A model generated the notes under the pieces. It was given only the letters and a program-made list of their open reading frames with translations. It was not told where the DNA came from and ran no database searches. DNA of 22,870 nt from a virus (taxonomy: Duplodnaviria; Heunggongvirae; Uroviricota; Caudoviricetes). Where the stretch lies: positions 64,001 to 86,870 of IMG/VR virus record IMGVR_UViG_3300036828_000615; one strand, given 5' to 3'. Each line of letters opens with the position of its first letter. Within the stretch, counting starts at the first letter, position 1. The position numbers and the translations under genes were made by a program. Shown piece by piece: positions 1,362-22,038 of this stretch.

Positions 1362-2813
1362 CTAGAAAGTGGGCGCGGTCAAACCCGTGATCTCGACCAC
1401 GCTCTGCGGATATCGGCCGGCCGAAAATGCTAAGTAATTGTAGATTTGGAGCAGCACGGTCAGATTTTGCGCCTTGGTCTCGGGCAGCACGCGCGCCCGG
1501 ATCCCGCTCTCCCAGAGCACCAGGTCGGAAGTACGCGCGACGATGATGACGTCGTTCGTACCGGCCGCGGTGCCCACGCCCGCCGTGGTGGTGATGTTCG
1601 GGTCGGTCACGACCGGCAGCCCGTGCATCTGGCCCACGACCTGCTGGCTGGCGACCTCCTCGAGGATGCCCGCGGCGTTGAACGGGTTGTTGGCCGACGG
1701 CAGGAACAACGGGCGCTGCTGACCATCCAGCAGGGACAGGAACCAGCCCCAGCGCCGGGGGTGCATCACGATCACCTCGGCCGGCAGGAAACGGGTCGTG
1801 TGGATCGTCTGGATGGCGTTGGCGATCGCGGAGTACACGCCCTGAATCGTGACCGCCGAGGCCGGCACGGTACCGATGCCCGGCGTCTTGTCGACACCGA
1901 GTACCTGACCGCTGACGCCGGTGCCACTCAGCACCTGCTGGTCGGTCGAGGCGGCGTGCGCGGCGACCAGGTCGCGGAACACGACGTCGTCGAAGGCGAT
2001 CGGGCTCTGGTCGATCAGCTGGATCGAAACCCCTTGCGCGCCAGCCAGAGTGCACACCGGCGCGTTGATGAAGGTGTCGGTCAGATCGACGTCCACCACC
2101 GGCACGTTGTCGGCGGTCTGGATACCGACCGCGGTACCGGTCAACAGCTTGGGGATGTTGATGCTGTCGGTTCCACCGGGCAATGGTTGCCGCTGCACGA
2201 GATTGGCGAAAGCCCTACCGGGACGGGCCAATTCGACGTACTGGTCCATGAGCCAGGCGGGTGGGACCGCATATCCGCCGGAGCCGTCGACCCGGGAGAG
2301 GTCGCGGTACTCCTTGTACTCGTCGAGCGTGGCGACGTCCTGGGCGTGGCGGAACAGCCGCTCGCGGCTGGACCCGTCGTAGTCGATGTTCATCTGGTGC
2401 CTGATGAGGTCGTTGACCCAGGACCGCTGTCGATTGCCCTTGGTGTAGATGGCCTGTTCCTTGACCGATACCAGGCTGTTGGTCGCCTTGCGGATACCGG
2501 CCAGGTTCTTGGCGATCTGCCCGGTGCGCTCCACCTCGGAGCGAACCTCGTCGATGCGTTCGTCGAGGCCGATGATCTCGGCGCCCTCGCTGCGCATGTC
2601 CTTCATGTAGCGGCGGTACTCGCCGTCTTCCTCGGGCTCGAGGTCCTCGCGGCCCTGCTCGCGGGCGAGCAGCAGTACCGCTTCGGCCTTCTGCTGGCTG
2701 CGGGCGCGCTTCTCGGCCGTGGCCTCGCGCCGCTTGACGAGTTGGCTCAGGAAGTCTTCCAGGCCGCTGGAACCGACACCGGTGTCCAGGCGGCTTTCAA
2801 GCATCTCGGTCAT
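1362..2813 (-). CDS. Major capsid protein, HK97 fold, with N-terminal coiled-coil delta-like domain
   Basis: 483 aa. Contains GGYAVPP, a YWxxE-like/pointer region, IVMHPRRWG, LHGLPVVTDPNI-type and LQIYNYLAF motifs; sits downstream of protease and portal. Confidence 0.92.
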   Translation of the reverse strand: MTEMLESRLDTGVGSSGLEDFLSQLVKRREATAEKRARSQQKAEAVLLLAREQGREDLEPEEDGEYRRYMKDMRSEGAEIIGLDERIDEVRSEVERTGQIAKNLAGIRKATNSLVSVKEQAIYTKGNRQRSWVNDLIRHQMNIDYDGSSRERLFRHAQDVATLDEYKEYRDLSRVDGSGGYAVPPAWLMDQYVELARPGRAFANLVQRQPLPGGTDSINIPKLLTGTAVGIQTADNVPVVDVDLTDTFINAPVCTLAGAQGVSIQLIDQSPIAFDDVVFRDLVAAHAASTDQQVLSGTGVSGQVLGVDKTPGIGTVPASAVTIQGVYSAIANAIQTIHTTRFLPAEVIVMHPRRWGWFLSLLDGQQRPLFLPSANNPFNAAGILEEVASQQVVGQMHGLPVVTDPNITTTAGVGTAAGTNDVIIVARTSDLVLWESGIRARVLPETKAQNLTVLLQIYNYLAFSAGRYPQSVVEITGLTAPTF

Positions 2814-2975
2814 GACGAATCCTTAATGAGGGTGCGATCAGATGGGGGCGTGGCCCGAACTGGGCGGATGGCTCGTCACCGCTCCGGCCCGTTTGGTGGG
2901 TTCGTCACCGGCACCTGGGGCACTCGGTCGGCGTTCCGGCGATCGGTTGTACGCGCGGGAACAGACCTGCCCGTG

Positions 2976-3014
2976 ATTATGCAACCAGGACGCCGCCGGT
3001 GTGAGCCGACACGC
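2976..3014 (-). promoter_or_regulatory. Candidate capsid-gene promoter: GCGTGTCGG box, 24 nt, CATAAT
   Basis: Motif at 3014-3006 and -10-like CATAAT at 2981-2976 in the non-coding gap; similar geometry at 12688-12649. Confidence 0.4.
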
Positions 3015-3015
3015 C

Positions 3016-3035
3016 GGTGCCCGAATTTGGGCACC
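3016..3035. terminator. 7-bp hairpin immediately after the stop at 3036
   Basis: ggtgccc-gaattt-gggcacc; no U-tract. Confidence 0.35.
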
Positions 3036-3185
3036 TCATCGCGCGGTCCACATCATCCACCACGGCGGGCGCCAGCCCGGCCATCGTGCCGAGGCGAGAT
3101 AGGCGTCGATCTGCTCCTCGGTCCAGCCCTTTCCGCGCAGATAACCCGCCTTCTCGGCGCTGGCCTGGGCCAGGGCCTCGTTCAT
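3036..3185 (-). CDS. Hypothetical 49-aa microprotein
   Basis: Not in the ORF track. ATG overlaps the upstream TGA; MNEALAQASAEKAGYLRGKGWTEEQIDAYLASARWPGWRPPWWMMWTAR. Confidence 0.55.
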   Translation of the reverse strand: MNEALAQASAEKAGYLRGKGWTEEQIDAYLASARWPGWRPPWWMMWTAR

Positions 3186-3355
3186 CACTCCTCCGGCGGC
3201 GGCTTAGCGGCCTCGTCGCGCTCATGCGCCAGCTGAGGCTCCAGCGCGGGATCGGCGGCCAGCCGCTCCTGGTCGGTCTTCGCCAGGTCGGTGTCGTGGC
3301 CCGGTTCGCCCGGTTCCTGCGCGTCGCCGGGGTCGTCGATGGGGGTGTCGGTCAT
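3185..3355 (-). CDS. Hypothetical 56-aa acidic microprotein
   Basis: Not in the ORF track. GGAGAGAGGG upstream of ATG 3355, right after the protease stop; MTDTPIDDPGDAQEPGEPGHDTDLAKTDQERLAADPALEPQLAHERDEAAKPPPEE. Confidence 0.6.
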   Translation of the reverse strand: MTDTPIDDPGDAQEPGEPGHDTDLAKTDQERLAADPALEPQLAHERDEAAKPPPEE

Positions 3356-3367
3356 TTCCCTCTCTCC

Positions 3368-5056
3368 TTAACTCGCTTTGGTCTTGGGCTGCATGGTGTC
3401 GGCGAAGCCGGACTGGCGGATCACGGCCAGCCCTTCGGAGACCTTGATCGTCTTGGGCTCGCCGAACTCGGCGCGCAACTCCTCGAGCCTGCGAGTCACG
3501 TCGGTGTCAGTGGGCGCGCTGGCCTGCAGATCGCGGATCTGGCGGCGGGCCTTGGCCAGCATGGTGCGCAGATCCTTGTCGCCCTCGGCCATGTTGTAGC
3601 AGGTGACAATGGTGGCTTCCAGCGCCTTGGCCAGGCCGAGGTCCAGGCCCAGCTCCTGCTCGTGCTCGTCCTCGTCGCAGTCCTCGTTCTCGCCGATGGC
3701 GCCCTCGGCGTCGGTACCGGCGTAGTCGTCCATCTCCGAGTGCGCGTCGGGCATCCCGCGCCGGCCCTTCTTCTCGTCGTCGTCGCCCTCGCGGCCGCCG
3801 CCCTTCTTGAACGGCTTGGCCTGCTTGTCGGCGAAGTCGCGATCCTCGTTGTCGTTGCAGGACTCGTCGTCGTCGTGCTCGCCGTCGCAGCTCGCGTCAT
3901 GCCCGCGGTCGGCAATCTCGTCAATCATCGCGTGTTGCTCCTTGTCGTATTCCTCGTCGTGCGGGTCCAACGGCCAGTCGGTGGGCCGCCAGACATAGGG
4001 AGCGCCCTTGAAGGCCGTGCCCCGCTTGGCCGAGGGCAGTTGCACCTCGCTGCCGTCCTGCAGGACCGCGACCAGCATGGTGCCACCCGCCGCGTCGGGC
4101 CGCAGGTCGATGTGGTCGACACCGCTCAGCGTCTTGGATTCGTCGACCGTGATGCCGAACGACTTGGCCGCCGACCGGAGCTTGCCCATGATCGCGGACT
4201 GCTGCTCGGAGGTGTAGCTGCCTTTGTTCTGGGCGAAGCGCGCCAGCGCGTTGCGCACCCGGGCGGCGGAGTTCAACGGGTACCGCTTCACGCCGTTACC
4301 CTCCTTGGCGGGCTTGCCCTTGCTGTCCAGGTAGCCCGGGTCGGCGAAGGTGGAGACCCCGGAGTACTTCTTGGGTGTCGACGCCCGGATCGTCGCCTTC
4401 AGCACGCCCATCGCCCGCTCCACCTGATCGCGGTCCATCTTGCGCAGCTCAACCAGGTCGTTGTTCGACAGCTGGGCCAGCGCGGAGACCGCCTCGGTGG
4501 ACAGCATCGCCGCCGTGTTGGGATTGGCGCCGTAGTTGACCACCGACACGTCACCCTTCTGCAGGTTGATCTCGGTGATGGTGCGCCGGGTGTAGGAGTC
4601 GTCCCATTCCTGGCCGTTGTTGGCCACCCGGAACGCGAAGCTCATCTCGTCCATATCGCCGCGGCGCATCTTGGGCATGAGCCGCTGCACGTCGGGGTCG
4701 GTCGGGTCCAGCGTGGCGCGCACCAGCAGCCCGTGCGGGTCGGTCGACAGGCTCATGGTGCCGCTCTTGGTCCGGGCCAGCGGCAGCCCTTCGTGGTTGA
4801 GCAGCAGCTGCACGTCGGGACTGGTGGACAACGTACGGTCGAACGCGCGGGTGTGGATCGACTCGTCCCAGCCCCCGCCGGTCGGACCGCCGTACACCGG
4901 GTAGGGCTGATCGAAGGTCGCCGCGTAGCCCTCCAGGATCACCTGGGGACGCTCGCCGTCGTTGCGGTATTCGTAGTGCAGCGGCTGCGCCATCCGGCGC
5001 TGCTCGCGCACGTCGAAGATCTTCGCCCGGAAGCTGTAGTCGGTGGCGGTGGTCAT
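3368..5056 (-). CDS. HK97-type prohead protease (S78) fused to an extra helical domain and an acidic scaffold-like tail
   Basis: AGGAGG RBS. The N-terminal ~190 aa has LEGYAATF, LLNH, DPHGL, MSFAFRV and EINLQKGDVSVVNYGANP motifs; 562 aa in total. Confidence 0.88.
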   Translation of the reverse strand: MTTATDYSFRAKIFDVREQRRMAQPLHYEYRNDGERPQVILEGYAATFDQPYPVYGGPTGGGWDESIHTRAFDRTLSTSPDVQLLLNHEGLPLARTKSGTMSLSTDPHGLLVRATLDPTDPDVQRLMPKMRRGDMDEMSFAFRVANNGQEWDDSYTRRTITEINLQKGDVSVVNYGANPNTAAMLSTEAVSALAQLSNNDLVELRKMDRDQVERAMGVLKATIRASTPKKYSGVSTFADPGYLDSKGKPAKEGNGVKRYPLNSAARVRNALARFAQNKGSYTSEQQSAIMGKLRSAAKSFGITVDESKTLSGVDHIDLRPDAAGGTMLVAVLQDGSEVQLPSAKRGTAFKGAPYVWRPTDWPLDPHDEEYDKEQHAMIDEIADRGHDASCDGEHDDDESCNDNEDRDFADKQAKPFKKGGGREGDDDEKKGRRGMPDAHSEMDDYAGTDAEGAIGENEDCDEDEHEQELGLDLGLAKALEATIVTCYNMAEGDKDLRTMLAKARRQIRDLQASAPTDTDVTRRLEELRAEFGEPKTIKVSEGLAVIRQSGFADTMQPKTKAS

Positions 5057-5072
5057 GATTCCTCCTGGTTGC

Positions 5073-6446
5073 TCACTGTCTCACCGGAACGCTTTTTCCG
5101 TTACGCGGCGCGCCGCGCGGCCGTCGGGGCGGCTCGTCCTCGTCATCTTCACCGCCGCCGTCGTTCTCACCGCCGGCGATCGGGGGTGTCGGCAGACCGC
5201 CTGGTGCAGTACCCGGCTTGATCAGCGGCGGCGGCGGGTTCATCAGGCCGGGCGGAGTGCCCAGCGGGACCATCGTGCCGGGGTGGAAGATCTCGTCGCC
5301 GCCCTCGACCGGGTCCATCTCCTCGCGGGCGCGCACCTCGTTGGTGGAGGTCCAGCCCGCGACGGTCGACCCGCCCAGCGCGTTCTTGTACGCCGCGAAG
5401 CGGGCTTCGATATCCCCGCGCAGCAGGGCGTCGAAGTCGAACCGCACGTATTGGCCGCCCGGCAGGCAGCGGTTGATCATGGATTCGATGCAGGCCGTCC
5501 AGGCGCGGAAGGTGTAGGTGATCGCACCCAGGGTGATCTGCTCGACGCCGGTGCCCCAGGCGGTCGTCTCCTTGGTGTCGCCGATGAGGATGGGCGGGAC
5601 GCCGAACATGATGCAGATCTCGGACCGCTGGAATTGCCGGGTGGCCAAAAACTGCGATTCCTCGGGGCTGATCGACAGGTTCTTCCAACTGAACCCGCTG
5701 GTCAGCACCGCAGGTAGCCGCCGCCCGCCGTGGGAGGCGATCCAGTTCTTCTGCTGGCGCTCCACCGCGCCCTCGTCGAGGTCCTGATCGGTCATCAGCA
5801 GACCTGACGGGTTGGCCGACTCCTTGAAGTAGCGGAAGCCGTATTCCTCTGCGCCCAGGCTCATCCCGATCGCCACCGCGGCCTGTTTGACCGGCGAGAG
5901 CCCCCACGGCTCGCCGGGCATGGTGAAGCGTCTGATGTGCAGCATGTCGGCGGGACTGACCTTCTCGCCCATGATCCGGTAGATCGGGTCGAACCACATC
6001 AGGATGTCGGGACGGCGCTCGAGGAACACGATGTCGGGGTGCAGCGGCAGCAGTGAGGTGGGGTAGTTCAGCCGGTCGCGGCTGGTGATCAGGTGATAGC
6101 TGTTGCCACGCAAGGCCATTGAGGCCACGACCATCCACTTCCACTGGAACAGGTCGAAGCCCGGGAACGGCTCGCGCAGCAGCACCGGCTGCGGCTTGAC
6201 CTCCTTGGGGATGCCCTTGGCGTCGCGCCGGTACGCCTTCCACGGCAGGCTCGCGATGGTGTCGGCCAGGATGCGCACGCAGGCATACACCGTCATGTTC
6301 GCCATAGCCCGGTGCACGCCGAGGTAGTCGTCGATCACCCCGACCTGCGGGGGCGGCACGAAGGCGCTGGTGGTCAGGGTGCGCTGCTCGGCACCGCCGG
6401 TGCCGCCGGCGCGGCCGGTGCGCAACAGGTTGGTCAGGACGCTCAA
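5073..6446 (-). CDS. Portal protein, HK97 family
   Basis: 457 aa, TTG start. VYACVRILADTIASLP, GNSY, LHIR, GLSP, ISPEESQFL and ICIMFGVPP motifs; between TerL and the protease. Confidence 0.93.
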   Translation of the reverse strand: MSVLTNLLRTGRAGGTGGAEQRTLTTSAFVPPPQVGVIDDYLGVHRAMANMTVYACVRILADTIASLPWKAYRRDAKGIPKEVKPQPVLLREPFPGFDLFQWKWMVVASMALRGNSYHLITSRDRLNYPTSLLPLHPDIVFLERRPDILMWFDPIYRIMGEKVSPADMLHIRRFTMPGEPWGLSPVKQAAVAIGMSLGAEEYGFRYFKESANPSGLLMTDQDLDEGAVERQQKNWIASHGGRRLPAVLTSGFSWKNLSISPEESQFLATRQFQRSEICIMFGVPPILIGDTKETTAWGTGVEQITLGAITYTFRAWTACIESMINRCLPGGQYVRFDFDALLRGDIEARFAAYKNALGGSTVAGWTSTNEVRAREEMDPVEGGDEIFHPGTMVPLGTPPGLMNPPPPLIKPGTAPGGLPTPPIAGGENDGGGEDDEDEPPRRPRGAPRNGKSVPVRQ

Positions 6447-6447
6447 C

Positions 6448-6849
6448 TCAGCCCCTCATCACCTTGGAGGTGGCCACCCCGAGCAGGATCAGCGCGATCC
6501 CGATGATCGCCAGGCCCAGCGCCGGATGCACCAGCCACCCGGCGACGCTCAGCGCGGTGATCCCGGTCAGCTCCAGCAGGGTGGAGAACAGCTCACGCCA
6601 GTCGAAGCCCGGCTCGCCCACCGGCTCGGGCAGGTTCTTCGGTGTCACCACCGACACCGGCTTCTCCGGCTCCTTGTCCCCGTCCTTGTCCTTCTTGGCC
6701 TTGTGTGGTGGCTCGGGCTCGTCGGCCCAGGGCGGCGGATCGGGCAGCAGCATCTCCGCGCGGCGCTGGTCCTCGAGCGCCTCCCGGGCGTCGGCGTACA
6801 GCTTGCCGCCGCCACCGAAAGAGACCACGTTGTCAGGAGAATCGCTCAT
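6448..6849 (-). CDS. Small membrane protein between terminase and portal
   Basis: 133 aa with two C-terminal hydrophobic segments; overlaps the TerL end and abuts the portal start. Confidence 0.75.
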   Translation of the reverse strand: MSDSPDNVVSFGGGGKLYADAREALEDQRRAEMLLPDPPPWADEPEPPHKAKKDKDGDKEPEKPVSVVTPKNLPEPVGEPGFDWRELFSTLLELTGITALSVAGWLVHPALGLAIIGIALILLGVATSKVMRG

Positions 6850-8428
6850 CGGCTTCCTTTCGCCAGGTGTCGAGGGTTTCTTCGTCGGGCCACTCCCAGA
6901 TCGTGGGTGGCCCCGGGGTCGGCGGCGGGTTGTTGAGCAGCCACACCGCCCCTGCGACCGCGACCAGCGGTGCGGCGTCGACCGGCGAGTTGCGCCGGGA
7001 GAAGAACCAGGCGTCCCCCGACGTGCGCGCGATCGTCGAGGCCGCGGCCCGGTCCAGGATCGCCGACGGGCGGTGGCGGATGGTTCCGTTGACGATGCCG
7101 TCGTAGAACTCCCCGGCGCCGCTGGCGAGCTGGGCCACCGGCGCGCCCCATTCCACCACGTCGAGCCCGGCCGCGCGCAGGTCCTCGATCATCGACGAGG
7201 CCGGTGCCCCGGTCTTCTGCACGCACAGTCCGGCGAAGTTCGCCTTGCGTTCGGCCAGCCACGCAGGCACCCACTCGGTGCCGGTGACCGGGGTTTTGAG
7301 CACCTCGGCGTGGATCTTGCCGTCGGCCCGCAGTGCGGCCATGGCGATGTAGGCGCGGGTGCGGTGGTAGTTGACGTCGACGCAGATGTAGGCCGGGTTG
7401 GCCTTGTCACGCTCCGAGTCCTTGTCCTTGGTGTCGGCCCACGCCTGGGCCGGGATGATGCCCGGGTCCAAAGAGTCCACCCACTGACATAGGTATTCGG
7501 TCTGGAAGCCCGGCATGTCCCCGGCCTCCATCGCCTCGAACTTGCCCATCAGGTCGTCCATACAGAACTCGTTGAGCAGCCCCAGCGCAGGCTGCGCCAG
7601 GTGCCAGTACTCGGGCTTACGCGGGTCCACGTCGTCGGGTACCGACCACTCGAAAAACCCGGTGCGGGTGCGCTCGGTGTTCCGCGTGACGATCGCGCGC
7701 ATGGCGGTCTCACGCAGGCTGCGCAGCACGATCGAGCGATTGTCCCCGGCGTTGGAGGTGACCAGCAGCTGGCTGCACGGGCGCACCGTGGTGGTCGGCT
7801 CAATGGCGCGGTAGGCGTCCCAGGTGGAGTGCGTGCGCAACTCGTCGAGCCACGCGAAGTCCACCGGCAGGCTGCGCCCGCCCGAGGAGTTGGCGGTCAC
7901 CGCGCGCCACAGCCGCCGGTAGGTGAGGATCGCGCGGTGCTTGCCGTTGGTGACGGCGTGGTTGAGCAGCTCGGGGGCCAGCAGCGGATGATCGCGCATC
8001 TCGTCCACGCAGTCCTTCAGTGTGGACTCCGCGTATTCCAGGTTCTGCGCGGCGACCACCGCCAGCTTCGCCGCCGGCCAATGCTTGCTGCCGCGCCCGC
8101 GCTCGTCCATGAACAGCCGCCAGAGCCCCAGGCCGCGGCCCCACTTGGTCTTGCCCTGCTGGCGCCCGACCATCACGATCAGGATGCGGAAGCGGAACCC
8201 GGTGTTGTCGGTCTGCTTCTCCAGCGCGCGGTAGTAGAGCCATTTCTGCCAGGGCAGCAGATGCCAGCCCAGGATCATTTCCAGGAAGTAGCAGCACAGC
8301 GGGCCCCAGGTGGCCTCGGGCCTGATGCCGTACTCAGCCTCGGGATCGACGTGTTCGGGCAGCGGAGGAGTGAACATCCGCGGCGTGGTGGACCCGATCC
8401 GTGGATCGACGTCGAGTGCAGTGCTCAT
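6833..8428 (-). CDS. terL: Terminase large subunit
   Basis: 531 aa. LLPWQ adenine motif, Walker A GRQQGKT, Walker B AWLDE, TSNAG coupling motif, C-terminal nuclease with CVDV and PVDAAPLVA. Confidence 0.93.
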   Translation of the reverse strand: MSTALDVDPRIGSTTPRMFTPPLPEHVDPEAEYGIRPEATWGPLCCYFLEMILGWHLLPWQKWLYYRALEKQTDNTGFRFRILIVMVGRQQGKTKWGRGLGLWRLFMDERGRGSKHWPAAKLAVVAAQNLEYAESTLKDCVDEMRDHPLLAPELLNHAVTNGKHRAILTYRRLWRAVTANSSGGRSLPVDFAWLDELRTHSTWDAYRAIEPTTTVRPCSQLLVTSNAGDNRSIVLRSLRETAMRAIVTRNTERTRTGFFEWSVPDDVDPRKPEYWHLAQPALGLLNEFCMDDLMGKFEAMEAGDMPGFQTEYLCQWVDSLDPGIIPAQAWADTKDKDSERDKANPAYICVDVNYHRTRAYIAMAALRADGKIHAEVLKTPVTGTEWVPAWLAERKANFAGLCVQKTGAPASSMIEDLRAAGLDVVEWGAPVAQLASGAGEFYDGIVNGTIRHRPSAILDRAAASTIARTSGDAWFFSRRNSPVDAAPLVAVAGAVWLLNNPPPTPGPPTIWEWPDEETLDTWRKEADERFS

Positions 8429-15047: not shown

Positions 15048-15848
15048 ATGGCCAAGGGCATGAGGGTCTGGAAGGCCGGGGACAATCTGGACGAGTCGAT
15101 CGGGTTCAAGTTCCGGGTGACCGATGCCGACGAGTTGGTCAAGGCCGCCGCCGAGAACTTCGTCGAGGAGCAGGCCCGCGCCTGGCGTGATGTCCGCCAA
15201 TGGGCCGATGACCAGATGGAGCTGATCGAGGTTGAACCCGGCGGCTCCCCCAACGGCCCGGGCGCGAGCCTGTCGTTGACCGAGAACCTACGCACCGAGC
15301 TGCCCAAGCTGTGGGTGCGCCACAACATCCGTTCGGTGCTCGACGTGGCGTGCGGCGACCTGAACTGGATGCGCCACGTCGACTTCACCGACCTGACCGC
15401 CCCCGAGCACACCAGGCCGTTCAACTACTTCGGCTGGGACATCGACCCTGAGCTGATTGTGCGCGCACAACAGCGCGCGGGCGAGATGAAGGGCAACCCG
15501 CACACCTGGTTCGAGATGCACAACATCCTCGACACCCCGTTCCTCAACGTGGACTGCATCCTGGCCCGGCACATCCTGATCCACCTGCCCAACGACTACA
15601 TCAGCGCGGTGCTCGACGAGATGCGTCACAGCCACGCCAAGTATCTGTTGGCCTCCAACTTCCCCGACGAGACCAACGACTTCATCTACGACCCGACCCG
15701 CTACGCCTGGATCGGCTACATGGAGCATCCGGTCAACCTGGAAGCCCCGCCGTTCAACCTGACGACCAAGATCGACGCGATTCCCGAGACGCCCGGCCCG
15801 GCCGGGGTGCTCACCGCGCGTCACGAGCTCGCGCTGTTCAAGCTATGA
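15048..15848 (+). CDS. Class I SAM-dependent methyltransferase with N-terminal extension
   Basis: AGGAGG RBS; GPGAS, VLDVACGDLNWM, YFGWDID, VDCILARHILIHL, AKYLLASNF and PVNLEAPPFNL. Confidence 0.82.
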   Translation: MAKGMRVWKAGDNLDESIGFKFRVTDADELVKAAAENFVEEQARAWRDVRQWADDQMELIEVEPGGSPNGPGASLSLTENLRTELPKLWVRHNIRSVLDVACGDLNWMRHVDFTDLTAPEHTRPFNYFGWDIDPELIVRAQQRAGEMKGNPHTWFEMHNILDTPFLNVDCILARHILIHLPNDYISAVLDEMRHSHAKYLLASNFPDETNDFIYDPTRYAWIGYMEHPVNLEAPPFNLTTKIDAIPETPGPAGVLTARHELALFKL

Positions 15849-18821: not shown

Positions 18822-19341
18822 CGCGACCGTCCATGCGCCACTCGTCCTCCTCGCAGCCGCCGTAGGCCCACCACGGTTTCATCCCGGCCCGCACGTCGGT
18901 CACCGCCTCGAGGTGCCCGCGGGCCGCCTGTGCCTCGGTGCAGTAGCGGCGCTGCCAGTGGCTGTATTGGCCGCCGAAGATCATGGTCTCGAAGATGACC
19001 GGTTGATACGCCTCGCCCAGCGCCTCGCGCTCGGTGAAGCTGCAGAAGCCGTGGTCGATGCCCAGCCACACCGTGCTCACGGTGACCTCGCCGATGCGGT
19101 CCTCCCCGACGCGCAGATACGCCCGCGCGCCGTAATGCCCGTCGGGGTCCAGGCCGGTCTCGCGCAGCTCGCCCCAGCGGGTCATGGAGATCGGGCGGGC
19201 CTGGCGGTCGAAGTAGAGCGGGCGGCCCATGAACGGGTCGATGACGTCGTCGATCCAGTCGTCGATCGCGATCACCCGGCCGACCTTGACCGTCTGCCAG
19301 GCCGCGAACAGCGGGTCGTACGGCAGCGGCAGGTTAGTCAT
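18814..19341 (-). CDS. Conserved phage hypothetical protein (VSTVWLGIDH...FETMIFGG)
   Basis: TGATG-coupled start at 19341; 175 aa; motif VSTVxLGxDH...P..FETMIFGG...RY.T...A..GH. Confidence 0.72.
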   Translation of the reverse strand: MTNLPLPYDPLFAAWQTVKVGRVIAIDDWIDDVIDPFMGRPLYFDRQARPISMTRWGELRETGLDPDGHYGARAYLRVGEDRIGEVTVSTVWLGIDHGFCSFTEREALGEAYQPVIFETMIFGGQYSHWQRRYCTEAQAARGHLEAVTDVRAGMKPWWAYGGCEEDEWRMDGRDG

Positions 19342-19580
19342 CACCGGTCCTGCGCGATCCGGCGCCACGCCTCGGCCGACTCCCGCCAGGTCGCCGCTGT
19401 CTGTTGCCACATCAACGACGCCTCCCGCCACGCGTCAATGGTCTTCTGGTTCATGATGAGCACGCCCAGTAGCAGCGCCAGCGAGAGGGTGTCGAGGTTG
19501 TGGCCGTAAAACAGGAACAACCACAAGTTGAGCGCCGCGGCGATCCCGTACACCCAGATACTCACCCGCGAGAAGGTCAT
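19341..19580 (-). CDS. Two-TM membrane protein
   Basis: TACGGT-N7-ATG 19580 (alternative GTG 19589); two hydrophobic segments then an amphipathic tail. Confidence 0.65.
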   Translation of the reverse strand: MTFSRVSIWVYGIAAALNLWLFLFYGHNLDTLSLALLLGVLIMNQKTIDAWREASLMWQQTAATWRESAEAWRRIAQDR

Positions 19581-19615
19581 GGACGTCACCGTACCGCGTC
19601 AGGCACAATCCAGTA

Positions 19616-19774
19616 ATGGCAAATGCGGAGGTGTGTCGGCACTGCGGCGAACCCATCCTCAAATTCAACTTCCGCGACCAGGGCGAGCAGTGGTGGCACG
19701 CCAACCCGCTGCGCGGATCCACCACCTATCTGCACTGCGCCGCCGACATTGACCGGCCCAGGGCCGCGCCGTGA
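19616..19774 (+). CDS. 52-aa zinc-ribbon-like microprotein
   Basis: Not in the ORF track; MANAEVCRHCGEPI...WWH...LHC...; CACAAT-N6-ATG upstream; GTGA overlap with the DNA methyltransferase. Confidence 0.65.
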   Translation: MANAEVCRHCGEPILKFNFRDQGEQWWHANPLRGSTTYLHCAADIDRPRAAP

Positions 19775-21135
19775 AGCCCTACTACCACGACGATCAGCTC
19801 ACCCTGTACCACGGCGACGCCCTGGCCGTAGCGCGCGAGCTGCCCGATCGCGCCGTGGACTGCATTGTCAGCAGCCCGCCGTATTACGCGCTGCGTGACT
19901 ACGGCGACCCCGGCCAGTACGGGCTCGAGGACACCCCGGCCGATTATGTGGAGCACCTGCGCGCGCTGTTTTTCGAGCTGCGCCGGGTGCTGGCCGCCGA
20001 CGGGACCTGCTGGCTGGTGCTGGGCGACAGCTACAGCAGCAGGAAGGGCGCGGCCGCCGACGACAAGAACCTGATGGGCATGCCCTGGCGGGTGGCTCGT
20101 GCGCTGCAGCAACCGCAGTACGTCGGCAAGATTCACAATGAAGCGGACCGCGCGTGGCTCGCTGCGATGGTCGACGGTGAAGGCTGCATCGCCATGCATC
20201 GCCGGATGTCTGAAGAACGTAAGCGACCGACCTTCGCGCCGGTGGTCCAAGTGGCTAACACCAATCTGGGATTACTTGAACGCTGCCAACAGGTAGCGGG
20301 CGTTGGGACAATCTCGCATAGCGACCGCGGGCGGAACCGGCGCATTTATCGCTGGTGTGTAATGAGTAACCAAGCGCGTCAACTACTTCGCGAGCTATAT
20401 CCGCACCTAATTGCCAAACAACCGCAAGCTCGCGCCGCGGTAGCCGCATCGTGCGGGGGTGGCCGCTGGGGAGAATCGTCGCCCGGCGCGGAGCGCGCAT
20501 GGTTAGAGATAAAGGCCCTCAACAAGGGCGGCACGCATGATGGCGGATGGCCCGTCCCGGCCAGCATGTTCACTCCTGGATGGATTTTGAGAAATGCCAT
20601 TATTTGGTCGAAGCCCAACACGATGCCCGAGTCGGTCACCGACCGGCTCGCCTCGCGCTACGAGCACGTGTTCCTGTTCGCCAAGCAGCAGCGGTATTTC
20701 TTCGACCTCGACGCGATTCGCGAAGCGCATTCGCCGATCACACTGGACCGCTCGGCGCGTTCGGAGCGCAAACCGTATTCGGCCCGCGGCAGGAGCGGGA
20801 TGGCCAAGGTCCCCGGCCTGGGCGCCTACGGCGCGATCTCGGCGGGCAGGCGCACCCTCAACGAGGCCGGCGCCAACCCCGGGGACGTGTGGTCGGTCCC
20901 CACCGAGAAATTCCCCGGCGCGCACTTCGCCGTCTATCCCGTGGCGCTGGCGCAGCGCGCTATTTCCGCCGGGTGTAAACCCGGCGGAGTCGTATGCGAT
21001 CCGTTCAACGGCAGCGGTACCACCGGGCTGGCCGCCCAGAAAACCGGGCACCACTACATCGGCATCGACATCAGCCGCGACTACCTGGACCTGGCCCTGA
21101 GCACGCGCTTGAGCCAGGCCGCCCTGGACTTCTGA
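19771..21135 (+). CDS. Beta-class N4-C/N6-A DNA methyltransferase with in-frame LAGLIDADG insertion
   Basis: LYHGDAL, IVSSPPYY (motif IV), WLVLGDSY, GWILRNAIIWSKPN.MPES..DR....YEHVFLFAK, HFAVYP and CDPFNGSGTTG (motif I). Confidence 0.9.
   Translation: MKPYYHDDQLTLYHGDALAVARELPDRAVDCIVSSPPYYALRDYGDPGQYGLEDTPADYVEHLRALFFELRRVLAADGTCWLVLGDSYSSRKGAAADDKNLMGMPWRVARALQQPQYVGKIHNEADRAWLAAMVDGEGCIAMHRRMSEERKRPTFAPVVQVANTNLGLLERCQQVAGVGTISHSDRGRNRRIYRWCVMSNQARQLLRELYPHLIAKQPQARAAVAASCGGGRWGESSPGAERAWLEIKALNKGGTHDGGWPVPASMFTPGWILRNAIIWSKPNTMPESVTDRLASRYEHVFLFAKQQRYFFDLDAIREAHSPITLDRSARSERKPYSARGRSGMAKVPGLGAYGAISAGRRTLNEAGANPGDVWSVPTEKFPGAHFAVYPVALAQRAISAGCKPGGVVCDPFNGSGTTGLAAQKTGHHYIGIDISRDYLDLALSTRLSQAALDF
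20113..20574 (+). mobile_element. Single-motif LAGLIDADG endonuclease-like domain without intein blocks (~154 aa)
   Basis: WLAAMVDGEG at 20155-20184, QVANTNLGLL, YRW and LLRELYPHLIAKQPQA; many A/T-ending codons unlike the flanks. Confidence 0.75.
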
Positions 21136-21482
21136 GGCTGGGCGTCTGGTGAGACGCCGGTGAACCACTGCGACGGGTCGAACATCTCGCCGGACAGCAG
21201 CCACACCGGCGCCGGCGGCGTCTTCCACCGGATCCACCGGCACGCGCTCACCAGCCGTGCCCGCTCGTCCTCGTTCCCGGGTGCATTGAGGTAATCGGCA
21301 TGATCGGCGATCGCCGCGCCGACGGCGAACTCGCGCCCACCGACCGCCGACCAGAACGCCAGGCGCATCACGAACACGTTGGGGCCGACGAACTCCTCGT
21401 ATGGCCGCACCAGCCGCCATACCGCCGGGTCGATTCCGCGCGGCTCATCAGGCCGCGGCTCCAGCAGCTTGCGCAGGCTCAC
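21081..21482 (-). CDS. Hypothetical 133-aa protein
   Basis: GTGA-coupled start at 21482; the 3' end overlaps the convergent methyltransferase by 55 nt. Confidence 0.6.
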   Translation of the reverse strand: MSLRKLLEPRPDEPRGIDPAVWRLVRPYEEFVGPNVFVMRLAFWSAVGGREFAVGAAIADHADYLNAPGNEDERARLVSACRWIRWKTPPAPVWLLSGEMFDPSQWFTGVSPDAQPQKSRAAWLKRVLRARSR

Positions 21483-21733
21483 GGGTCCTTCCTCCACACT
21501 GCCACGCCGGCCGCGTCGACCTCCCGGGCGATGATCTCCACGGTCACCGTGTAGGAGCCCTCGGCCAGCCGTTTCACCACTGGTCCGCGTTCGCTGATGT
21601 GCCACGGGAAATCCACCCCGTCGATGCGCAGCACATGTTCCTCGCCGTCCTCGCCGGGTGGCGCGGTCGCGGTCGCACACTCGCACCGGTGCCGGATGAC
21701 CACGGTCTCGGCAACCTTGGCCTCAGTCCGCAC
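21479..21733 (-). CDS. Hypothetical 84-aa beta-rich protein
   Basis: GGAGGG upstream; GTG 21733 lies inside the repeat; LRIDGVDFPWHISERGP. Confidence 0.68.
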   Translation of the reverse strand: MRTEAKVAETVVIRHRCECATATAPPGEDGEEHVLRIDGVDFPWHISERGPVVKRLAEGSYTVTVEIIAREVDAAGVAVWRKDP

Positions 21734-21874
21734 GGCGGTCCACCCTCCAGGGCAGCGAATGAAACGGGGCGCCGCACCAGCAGTTCTGGTGCCGGTGGGT
21801 GCGGACGGGAACGCCTGACAGATCGCTGAGAAGCCACACGGGCGGCACGTAGTACTCAGTCCGCACGGCGGTCC
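21722..21874 (-). repeat. 20-bp perfect direct repeats bracketing a microgene
   Basis: ctcagtccgcacggcggtcc at 21722-21741 and 21855-21874. Confidence 0.92.
21723..21866 (-). CDS. 47-aa microprotein between the direct repeats
   Basis: Not in the ORF track; MRTEYYVPPVWLLSDLSGVPVRTHRHQNCWCGAPFHSLPWRVDRRAD; starts in one repeat and stops in the other. Confidence 0.55.
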   Translation of the reverse strand: MRTEYYVPPVWLLSDLSGVPVRTHRHQNCWCGAPFHSLPWRVDRRAD

Positions 21875-22038
21875 CGTCCGGGGTCGCCGCGCTCGATGCG
21901 CTCCAGGCTGCGACACACTCCCGAGGCGCTCATGCCCACCTGGCGCGCGATCTGGCGCATCGAGTAGCCCTTGTTGTAGAGCTCGAGGATGCGCCGGTCG
22001 CGTTCGTCGGCCGCCAGCATGTAGCGCCGCTCAGCCAT
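21856..22038 (-). CDS. Small HTH DNA-binding protein
   Basis: RDRRILELYNKGYSMRQIARQVGMSASGVCRSL. Confidence 0.8.
   Translation of the reverse strand: MAERRYMLAADERDRRILELYNKGYSMRQIARQVGMSASGVCRSLERIERGDPGRDRRAD

Follow-up and report, generated by a model that had tools for sequence, protein, structure and literature searches.

A LAGLIDADG endonuclease-like domain read in frame inside a phage DNA methyltransferase, probably a homing element that persists without splicing

A Nuclease Domain Within a Phage Methylase

The window analyzed here, a stretch of 22,870 nucleotides forming the final 22.9 kb of an 86.9-kb IMG/VR viral contig (IMGVR_UViG_3300036828_000615), encodes a DNA methyltransferase interrupted in frame by what is predicted to be a complete single-motif LAGLIDADG domain of the I-CreI fold, with the catalytic-type Glu and Lys kept. 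Judged from its sequence, this insert is translated as part of the methyltransferase and carries neither intein nor intron features. The explanation that we consider probable is a non-splicing homing endonuclease, which would have entered a methylase gene resembling that of the insert-free homologue P0009 by gene conversion, together with short flanks, and which is tolerated in a loop of the enzyme. To spare its host, a homing endonuclease is commonly assumed to require residence in an intron, an intein or an intergenic region; in-frame copies kept in the finished protein offer a third means of persistence, one reported to date for nine mycobacteriophage methylases. The positions of all features are given in Table 1.

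Table 1. Features of the methyltransferase gene and its insert (window coordinates; aa, amino acids)
Feature	Position	Strand	Remarks
Whole gene, beta-class DNA methyltransferase with in-frame LAGLIDADG insert	19771-21135	+	454 aa plus stop
Methyltransferase N-terminal part, aa 1-113	19771-20109	+	
Motif IV SPPY, aa 35-38	19873-19884	+	
Helix PWRVARALQ	20083-20109	+	
R110 codon	20098-20100	+	possibly upstream end of converted tract, or adaptation to insert
Insert read in frame, aa 114-268, with the I-CreI-like LAGLIDADG domain (aa 124-251) between two linkers	20110-20574	+	
LAGLIDADG motif WLAAMVDGEG, aa 129-138	20155-20184	+	
E137 in motif WLAAMVDGEG	20179-20181	+	pairs with metal-binding D20 of I-CreI; invariant in 56 relatives
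K216	20416-20418	+	pairs with K98 of I-CreI; nearly invariant in family
Downstream flank travelling with insert, aa 269-280	20575-20610	+	codon bias, Leu273, S280
Methyltransferase C-terminal part, aa 269-454: strand GWILRNAIIW, variable region, motif I	20575-21132	+	
Motif I DPFNGSGTT, aa 410-418	20998-21024	+	

The Host Methyltransferase

The 454-residue product matches the Pfam family PF01555 (N6_N4_Mtase) with an E value of 6e-44, the match falling in two separate stretches, and the methylase body, of Rossmann-type fold, is matched by Foldseek to M.BceJIV, CcrM, M.RsrI and M.PvuII (E 1e-11 to 4e-15) and further to a rotifer N4-cytosine enzyme and M.MboIIA. Since motif IV comes before motif I in gene order, the enzyme is of the beta class, and the host gene can be classified as a phage orphan beta-class methyltransferase of the gp60 type. 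A first-pass annotation, made without database searches, had read the gene as a DNA methyltransferase, and the Pfam match, the two motifs and the solved methylases found by Foldseek bear it out. The SPPY motif and the names that relatives bear in the sources suggest an N4-cytosine target. The methylase motifs are intact on both sides of the insert and under purifying selection, and a ratio of nonsynonymous to synonymous substitution rates (omega) below 1 for the body among filled, i.e., insert-bearing, alleles indicates that the methylase itself stays functional. Model confidence is low in the variable region at residues 339-360. One other contig on record encodes a protein identical to this product.

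Position of the Insert and Absence of Splicing Features

In an alignment with seven insert-free relatives, the turn ALQ-DD-GWILRN of the latter is replaced by residues 114-268/269 of the window's protein, a net gain of ~154 residues, the insertion point being the turn between the helix PWRVAxALQ and the next strand, GWxLRN. This comparison upholds the earlier description of a normally contiguous PWRVAxALQ/GWxLR segment split by ~154 amino acids with one LAGLIDADG motif. The insert runs from Q114 to F267-T268, with P269-G270 coming next, and its ends hold neither a Cys, Ser or Thr nucleophile nor the His-Asn of intein junctions. No Hint or intein family was found in a Pfam search of the product even at E values up to 1, and no intron family in an Rfam search of positions 19000-22000, likewise at E values up to 1. 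Apart from linkers of ~10 and ~17 residues, the modeled insert is taken up by the LAGLIDADG fold, and no space remains for further elements. From end to end the insert keeps the reading frame of the methylase, and both junction peptides are highly conserved as protein, across distant members of the family.

Introns and inteins are the usual home of LAGLIDADG genes, which would favor an atypical intein, or an intron with an in-frame open reading frame (ORF), that leaves a mature methylase devoid of the insert. Such a spliced element is nevertheless barely credible in view of the junction residues, the empty Pfam and Rfam searches, the short linkers and the conservation of the junction peptides as protein, and both the intron and the intein reading were rejected on the first two of these grounds. 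The first-pass annotation had likewise listed no Cys/Ser start, no HN-C/S/T end, no Hint blocks and no spare non-coding RNA, and it was right on each of these points. LAGLIDADG inteins, e.g., PI-SceI or that of Dorothy gp75 (Gosselin et al., 2023, Genes 14:288; PMC9957025), also place a LAGLIDADG nuclease in frame inside a conserved host protein, but a Hint domain and junction nucleophiles are both missing from the window's insert, which its host protein must therefore keep.

Predicted Fold and Pairing

A full-length AlphaFold2 model, built from 40 insert-bearing homologues, reached a predicted local distance difference test (pLDDT) score of 87.9 and a predicted template modeling score (pTM) of 0.83, and a model of the insert domain by itself a pLDDT of 91.2. 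Residues 124-251 are modeled as alpha-beta-beta-alpha-beta-beta-alpha followed by two more helices, the canonical order of secondary structure. Foldseek matches the insert to I-CvuI, I-CreI and I-MsoI (E ~1e-7, probability 1.00), the best core superpositions having a root-mean-square deviation of 1.6-2.0 A over ~106-109 columns, and a profile of 56 insert and free-standing sequences recovers I-MsoI (8e-15), I-CvuI (9e-13) and I-CreI (7e-9). W129, D135, N163 and K216 are nearly invariant in these 56 relatives, and no frameshifts or deletions occur among 40 aligned copies of the insert. The AlphaFold check proposed by the first-pass annotation gave two domains, a methylase body and a true LAGLIDADG fold whose nearest relatives are homodimeric intron endonucleases. 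Against the AlphaFold DB clusters, Foldseek returned only methyltransferases, at a template modeling score of ~0.5, and no clear two-domain match.

The insert shares with I-CreI, I-CvuI and I-MsoI the fold, the size, the single motif, the acidic residue at position 8 of the motif and the conserved Lys. It differs from them in sequence (17-27% identity) and in its two conserved linkers; moreover, the three enzymes are free proteins of self-splicing group I introns, whereas the window's is a domain inside a host protein. The I-CreI type of dimer, formed through the motif helix, is predicted for the insert as well: the pairing of two insert domains scored 0.73, against 0.00 for the best control, although this score may reflect likeness to solved I-CreI dimers rather than binding. 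Among proteins of solved structure, 20 of 30 homo-pairs and 1 of 23 single chains attained the mark set for the score. Contacts agreed 100% across three runs, with a partner pLDDT of at least 82, and the predicted interface is formed by residues 124-137, the LAGLIDADG motif helix.

Distribution of the Insert and Conflict Between Trees

The nearest sequence family of the insert is PHROG 5046 (E 3e-18), which consists of free-standing phage genes of ~160 amino acids labeled "HNH endonuclease." This label is a loose one; relatives in Streptomyces phages are annotated as LAGLIDADG. Members of 140-165 amino acids can be aligned with the insert over the span between the motif helix and the final helix, but each is a gene in its own right that starts and stops independently, whereas the window's insert lies in frame inside the methylase. 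Among the best 120 whole-protein homologues, ~20 carry an insert at exactly the window's site and ~100 do not. A full HMMER search with the insert yielded 340 representative clusters at E values up to 1e-10, and the best 150 of them comprise at least 48 methylases with the insert at this site and ~20 free-standing proteins. More than 40 viral contigs, with G+C contents from 31 to 72%, share the architecture, and relatives of the insert domain occur in genome bins of many bacterial phyla and some archaea. Deposited phage genomes present another picture. A megablast search with the gene against 50,697 phage records gave no match, and tblastn searches of deposited phage genomes with the insert found only free-standing genes of <36% identity, in Caulobacter, Streptomyces and Xylella phages, so that the architecture is absent from the deposited phage genomes searched. 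The in-frame, non-splicing strategy is widespread in uncultured phages of many host groups.

The insert is distributed patchily among close relatives. When its columns are removed, the window's methylase body falls in a clade of 11 (starred in the tree), the other 10 members of which have no insert at this site (site A), and one of them, P0008, carries a LAGLIDADG domain at another site. The bodies of the other close insert-bearing genes, P0003 to P0006, each adjoin insert-free genes. The inserts of the window and of these four genes form one clade, though their methylases are non-sister, and a clade of the five bodies is rejected by the approximately unbiased (AU) test (difference in log likelihood 103, p 0.001). 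Pairwise identities show the same conflict, the window and P0003 sharing 88% in the insert versus 64% in the body, and the window and P0020/P0022, which carry a second LAGLIDADG lineage at the same site, 33-36% versus 56%. Over 780 pairs, insert and body distances correlate weakly (Mantel r 0.40, p 0.0005). Comparing trees of homologues with and without the insert had been suggested in the first-pass annotation; the comparison thus gives a patchy distribution and rejects monophyly of the insert-bearing bodies.

Other Insertions in the Same Enzyme Family

The same family of methylases has been entered at other places as well. P0019 has an in-frame LAGLIDADG domain at residues ~174-346, after the FLFSKS strand (PHROG 5046, E 7e-18), and the domain of P0008 occupies residues ~226-395, inside the NPGD-VW segment (PHROG 5046, E 8e-24). 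In P0098 (gene L091:2001-3599), the window's own site (ALQDD ... WILRN) is filled by a low-complexity in-frame stretch of 215 residues, another frame of which encodes an HNH endonuclease (L091:2378-3022, plus strand; PHROG 2255, E 1e-5; no Pfam match). This hidden-HNH arrangement is of the ShiLan type, here in a gp60-type family. LAGLIDADG domains have therefore entered at least three loops of one enzyme family, and one of the sites is common to a hidden HNH element.

As a separate observation, P0062 and P0112 (Mycobacterium phage Henu3; match in two pieces) have a low-complexity in-frame stretch of ~80-90 residues (SQNPA...SYPSPNSEY...) upstream of the KNLLGIPW segment, which might hide another out-of-frame gene.

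Composition and the Putatively Converted Flank

The codons of the insert set it apart from its host gene. G+C content at third codon positions (GC3) is 0.65 in the insert, compared with 0.90 and 0.86 in the two parts of the methylase (0.88 pooled; Fisher p 1.7e-8), and the window as a whole has a G+C content of ~67-70%. An insert of GC3 0.65 in a body of GC3 0.90, in spite of synonymous sites that are saturated relative to the nearest known insert, suggests recent arrival of the window's copy from an unsampled donor of lower G+C. The A/T-ending codons do not stop at the junction but run on to codon 278 (nt 20604), i.e., ~30 nt into the downstream methylase sequence, close to the ~35 nt given in the first-pass annotation.

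Residues and codons at the flanks point the same way. The empty, i.e., insert-free, alleles used for comparison were taken from deposited phages, because P0009, which lacks the insert, brought up just a single close relative when viral contigs were scanned with it. Strict criteria for diagnostic amino-acid positions left too few sites near the junction, and a direct reading of the flanks was made instead. At R110, P269 and S280 the window shares the residues of insert-bearing alleles, Arg or Lys at position 110 being found in four of five close insert-bearing alleles versus one of nine insert-free sisters. From T284 (20620-20622) onward it matches the sisters, all nine of which have T284 and A294, residues present in no insert-bearing allele. 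The switch from filled-type to sister-type residues falls where the A/T-ending codons stop. Leu273 is encoded by TTR in all five close filled alleles and by CTN in the 10 of 10 empty alleles with Leu at this position; the window has TTG (20587-20589), and the other four close filled alleles, L002, L092, L093 and L094, have TTA, in spite of a GC3 of 0.7-0.9 in these genes. Over ten downstream codons, GC3 is lower in filled than in empty alleles (Mann-Whitney p 0.003). By these markers, the insert and ~4 to 12 codons on either side of it resemble insert-bearing alleles of other lineages, and the downstream flank looks like a co-conversion tract. Co-conversion had been proposed earlier from codon endings; the independent residue markers (S280 versus T284 and A294) and the codon signature of filled and empty alleles concur with that proposal.

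In the empty allele of P0009, inverted arms of 6 bp (GCAGGA ... TCCTGC, 11-nt spacing) surround the insertion point. They are absent from P0011 and PopTart and could be due to chance or codon usage, and we do not rely on them.

Selection and the Weighing of Readings

In ten pairs, omega is 0.05-0.22 in the insert versus 0.20-0.48 in the body, with synonymous divergence saturated in both. Stronger purifying selection, together with the conserved junctions, rules out a relic in decay; the pattern fits an element that needs activity to persist, or a domain that serves the phage. An inactive relic, i.e., an old invasion whose nuclease no longer works and is merely tolerated, would account for the saturated synonymous sites and for the lack of recent transfer between sampled genomes. 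We nonetheless regard it as very unlikely, given that the insert is more constrained than its host gene, that the catalytic-type residues are kept throughout the family, that the fold is predicted confidently (pLDDT 91) and that none of the 40 aligned copies has suffered a frameshift or deletion.

The alternative that deserves the most careful attention is domestication, in which the LAGLIDADG module has meanwhile taken on a function within the enzyme. Its role could be in dimerization, as an extra DNA-binding module or as a nuclease serving the phage, e.g., by cutting competitors; inheritance would be mainly vertical, and recombination with empty alleles would now and then remove the module. 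The omega values just given agree with this, as do the invariant E137 and nearly invariant K216 and N163 of the 56 relatives, the conserved junction peptides, the recurrence of one architecture over viral contigs of 31-72% G+C with mostly host-like GC3, the 48 or more of the best 150 representative clusters that have the insert at this site, and the positive correlation between insert and body distances. On the other hand, close relatives differ in whether they have the insert, and a single clade of the bodies that carry it is rejected; the composition break and flank markers of the window point to acquisition; three insertion sites, and an unrelated HNH gene at one of them, fit invasion better than a single fusion; and insert-free enzymes, evidently complete, are the large majority. 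We therefore hold domestication to be unlikely, if a serious contender. The first-pass annotation had left the choice between a non-splicing homing element and a domesticated domain. The former fits the fold, the lack of splicing, the patchiness and the tract, and the latter, too, still fits the conservation.

Several points weigh against a mobile, non-splicing element. The Pfam model LAGLIDADG_1 reaches the insert only with an E value of 0.18 and 13 bits, below its cut-off of 23. Synonymous sites are saturated between all sampled inserts, so that recent transfer between sampled genomes is not seen, and in most of the 40-odd viral contigs the GC3 of the insert resembles that of the host gene, with a mean difference of 0.05. 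An architecture found across contigs of 31-72% G+C also fits long residence. An insert more constrained than its methylase, with conserved junctions, is the pattern that a role beneficial to the host would give. The group examined in the AU test was defined by a trait, but was named after the first tree had been seen. Finally, the A/T bias is stronger in the downstream flank than within the insert, a difference that simple co-conversion leaves unaccounted for; protection of the remaining half-site and a translational pause are ideas that might explain it.

A further possibility is that the methylase-endonuclease fusion is a selected weapon in competition between phages, which would cut the conserved methylase gene of co-infecting or resident relatives devoid of the insert, whose markers would then be displaced by those of the filled allele. 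The A/T-shifted downstream half-site (Leu273 as TTR) would in this case shield the carrier's own gene, and the proposal would explain both why the insert is more constrained than the host gene and why the flank is more A/T-biased than the insert. We look upon it as improbable.

Proposed Mechanism

For the non-splicing homing endonuclease that we favor, the following course can be envisaged. Two fusion proteins would pair through their LAGLIDADG helices, as I-CreI does, and the paired nuclease would cut an uninterrupted allele near the ALQ-DD-GW codons, in a co-infecting phage or a resident prophage. Repair from the filled allele would then copy the insert together with short flanks. The methylase would stay active because, going by topology, the turn that holds the insert should be located on that face of the Rossmann-type fold which points away from the catalytic loops. 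The window's element appears to have left a readable conversion tract. Members of this family may be of practical interest for engineered nuclease fusions, as compact natural nucleases of the I-CreI type that tolerate tethering at both ends.

Relation to Published Elements

This kind of element has already been published. In nine methylases of cluster-F mycobacteriophages, e.g., Taj gp79, Gosselin et al. (2023) reported a LAGLIDADG domain that belongs to no intein, a "second homing endonuclease," and weighed the same two readings (PMC9957025). Taj gp79 likewise has its LAGLIDADG domain in frame within a PF01555 methyltransferase, with neither intein nor intron, and the insert is likewise predicted as a separate domain that leaves the methylase intact. 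The window's case differs in site, in methylase family and in endonuclease lineage. The Taj insert directly follows motif IV, whereas the window's lies between the ALQ helix and the GWxLRN strand; the Taj methylase is of the PopTart gp63 type, while the window's is of the PopTart gp60 type, which that study set aside (PMC9957025); and Pfam LAGLIDADG_1 recognizes the Taj insert at an E value of 7e-16, against 0.18 for the window's insert. No mycobacteriophage sequence was matched by tblastn with the window's insert. The nine Taj-type copies form one clan with no strong sign of transfer (PMC9957025), whereas the copies of the window's family are patchy and a flank that looks converted can be seen. 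Transfer and selection show more clearly here than in the cases published so far.

The other published parallel is the ShiLan domain, which hides an HNH endonuclease encoded out of frame in actinophage methylases (Arsenault et al., 2025, Genes 16:178; PMC11855218). It, too, is a homing element in the methylase gene of a phage, where translation passes through it in frame and no splicing occurs, and a ShiLan-like element fills exactly the window's insertion site in P0098. Its in-frame reading is a low-complexity loop, with the nuclease in another frame, whereas the window's folded nuclease domain is what the methylase frame itself encodes. Bipolar and Pollywog were considered as carriers of the published LAGLIDADG insert and rejected, since they carry the ShiLan element instead. 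A 2025 preprint deals with actinophage inteins, and the window's case lies outside its coverage.

Genomic Surroundings

The head module of the phage lies on the minus strand at positions 1362-8428 of the window, comprising the major head protein, the maturation protease, the portal and the large terminase (PHROG E 1e-58 to 8e-93), and is divergent from the plus-strand block that contains the methylase. PHROG searches with plus-strand ORFs of the first 15 kb gave no matches, the genes there being on the minus strand. The GTG start of the methylase overlaps the stop of an upstream 52-residue ORF (GTGA), and start/stop overlaps of this sort are usual in phage operons. That ORF (19616-19774, plus strand) has a CxxC ... 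H ... HC pattern and no match in Pfam; in many cluster-F phages, the upstream neighbor of the gp60-type methylase bears the annotation HNH endonuclease. Six nucleotides past the methylase stop, at 21141-21158, lies an inverted repeat (GGCGTCT GGTG AGACGCC) that may be the stem of a terminator; a match to the Rfam family HIV-1_SD, below threshold, was discarded as spurious, being caused by this repeat. A second methyltransferase gene is located 4 kb upstream (15048-15848, plus strand), encoding a class I enzyme dependent on S-adenosylmethionine (PHROG 3382, E 4e-40; Pfam Methyltransf_25) and unrelated to PF01555.

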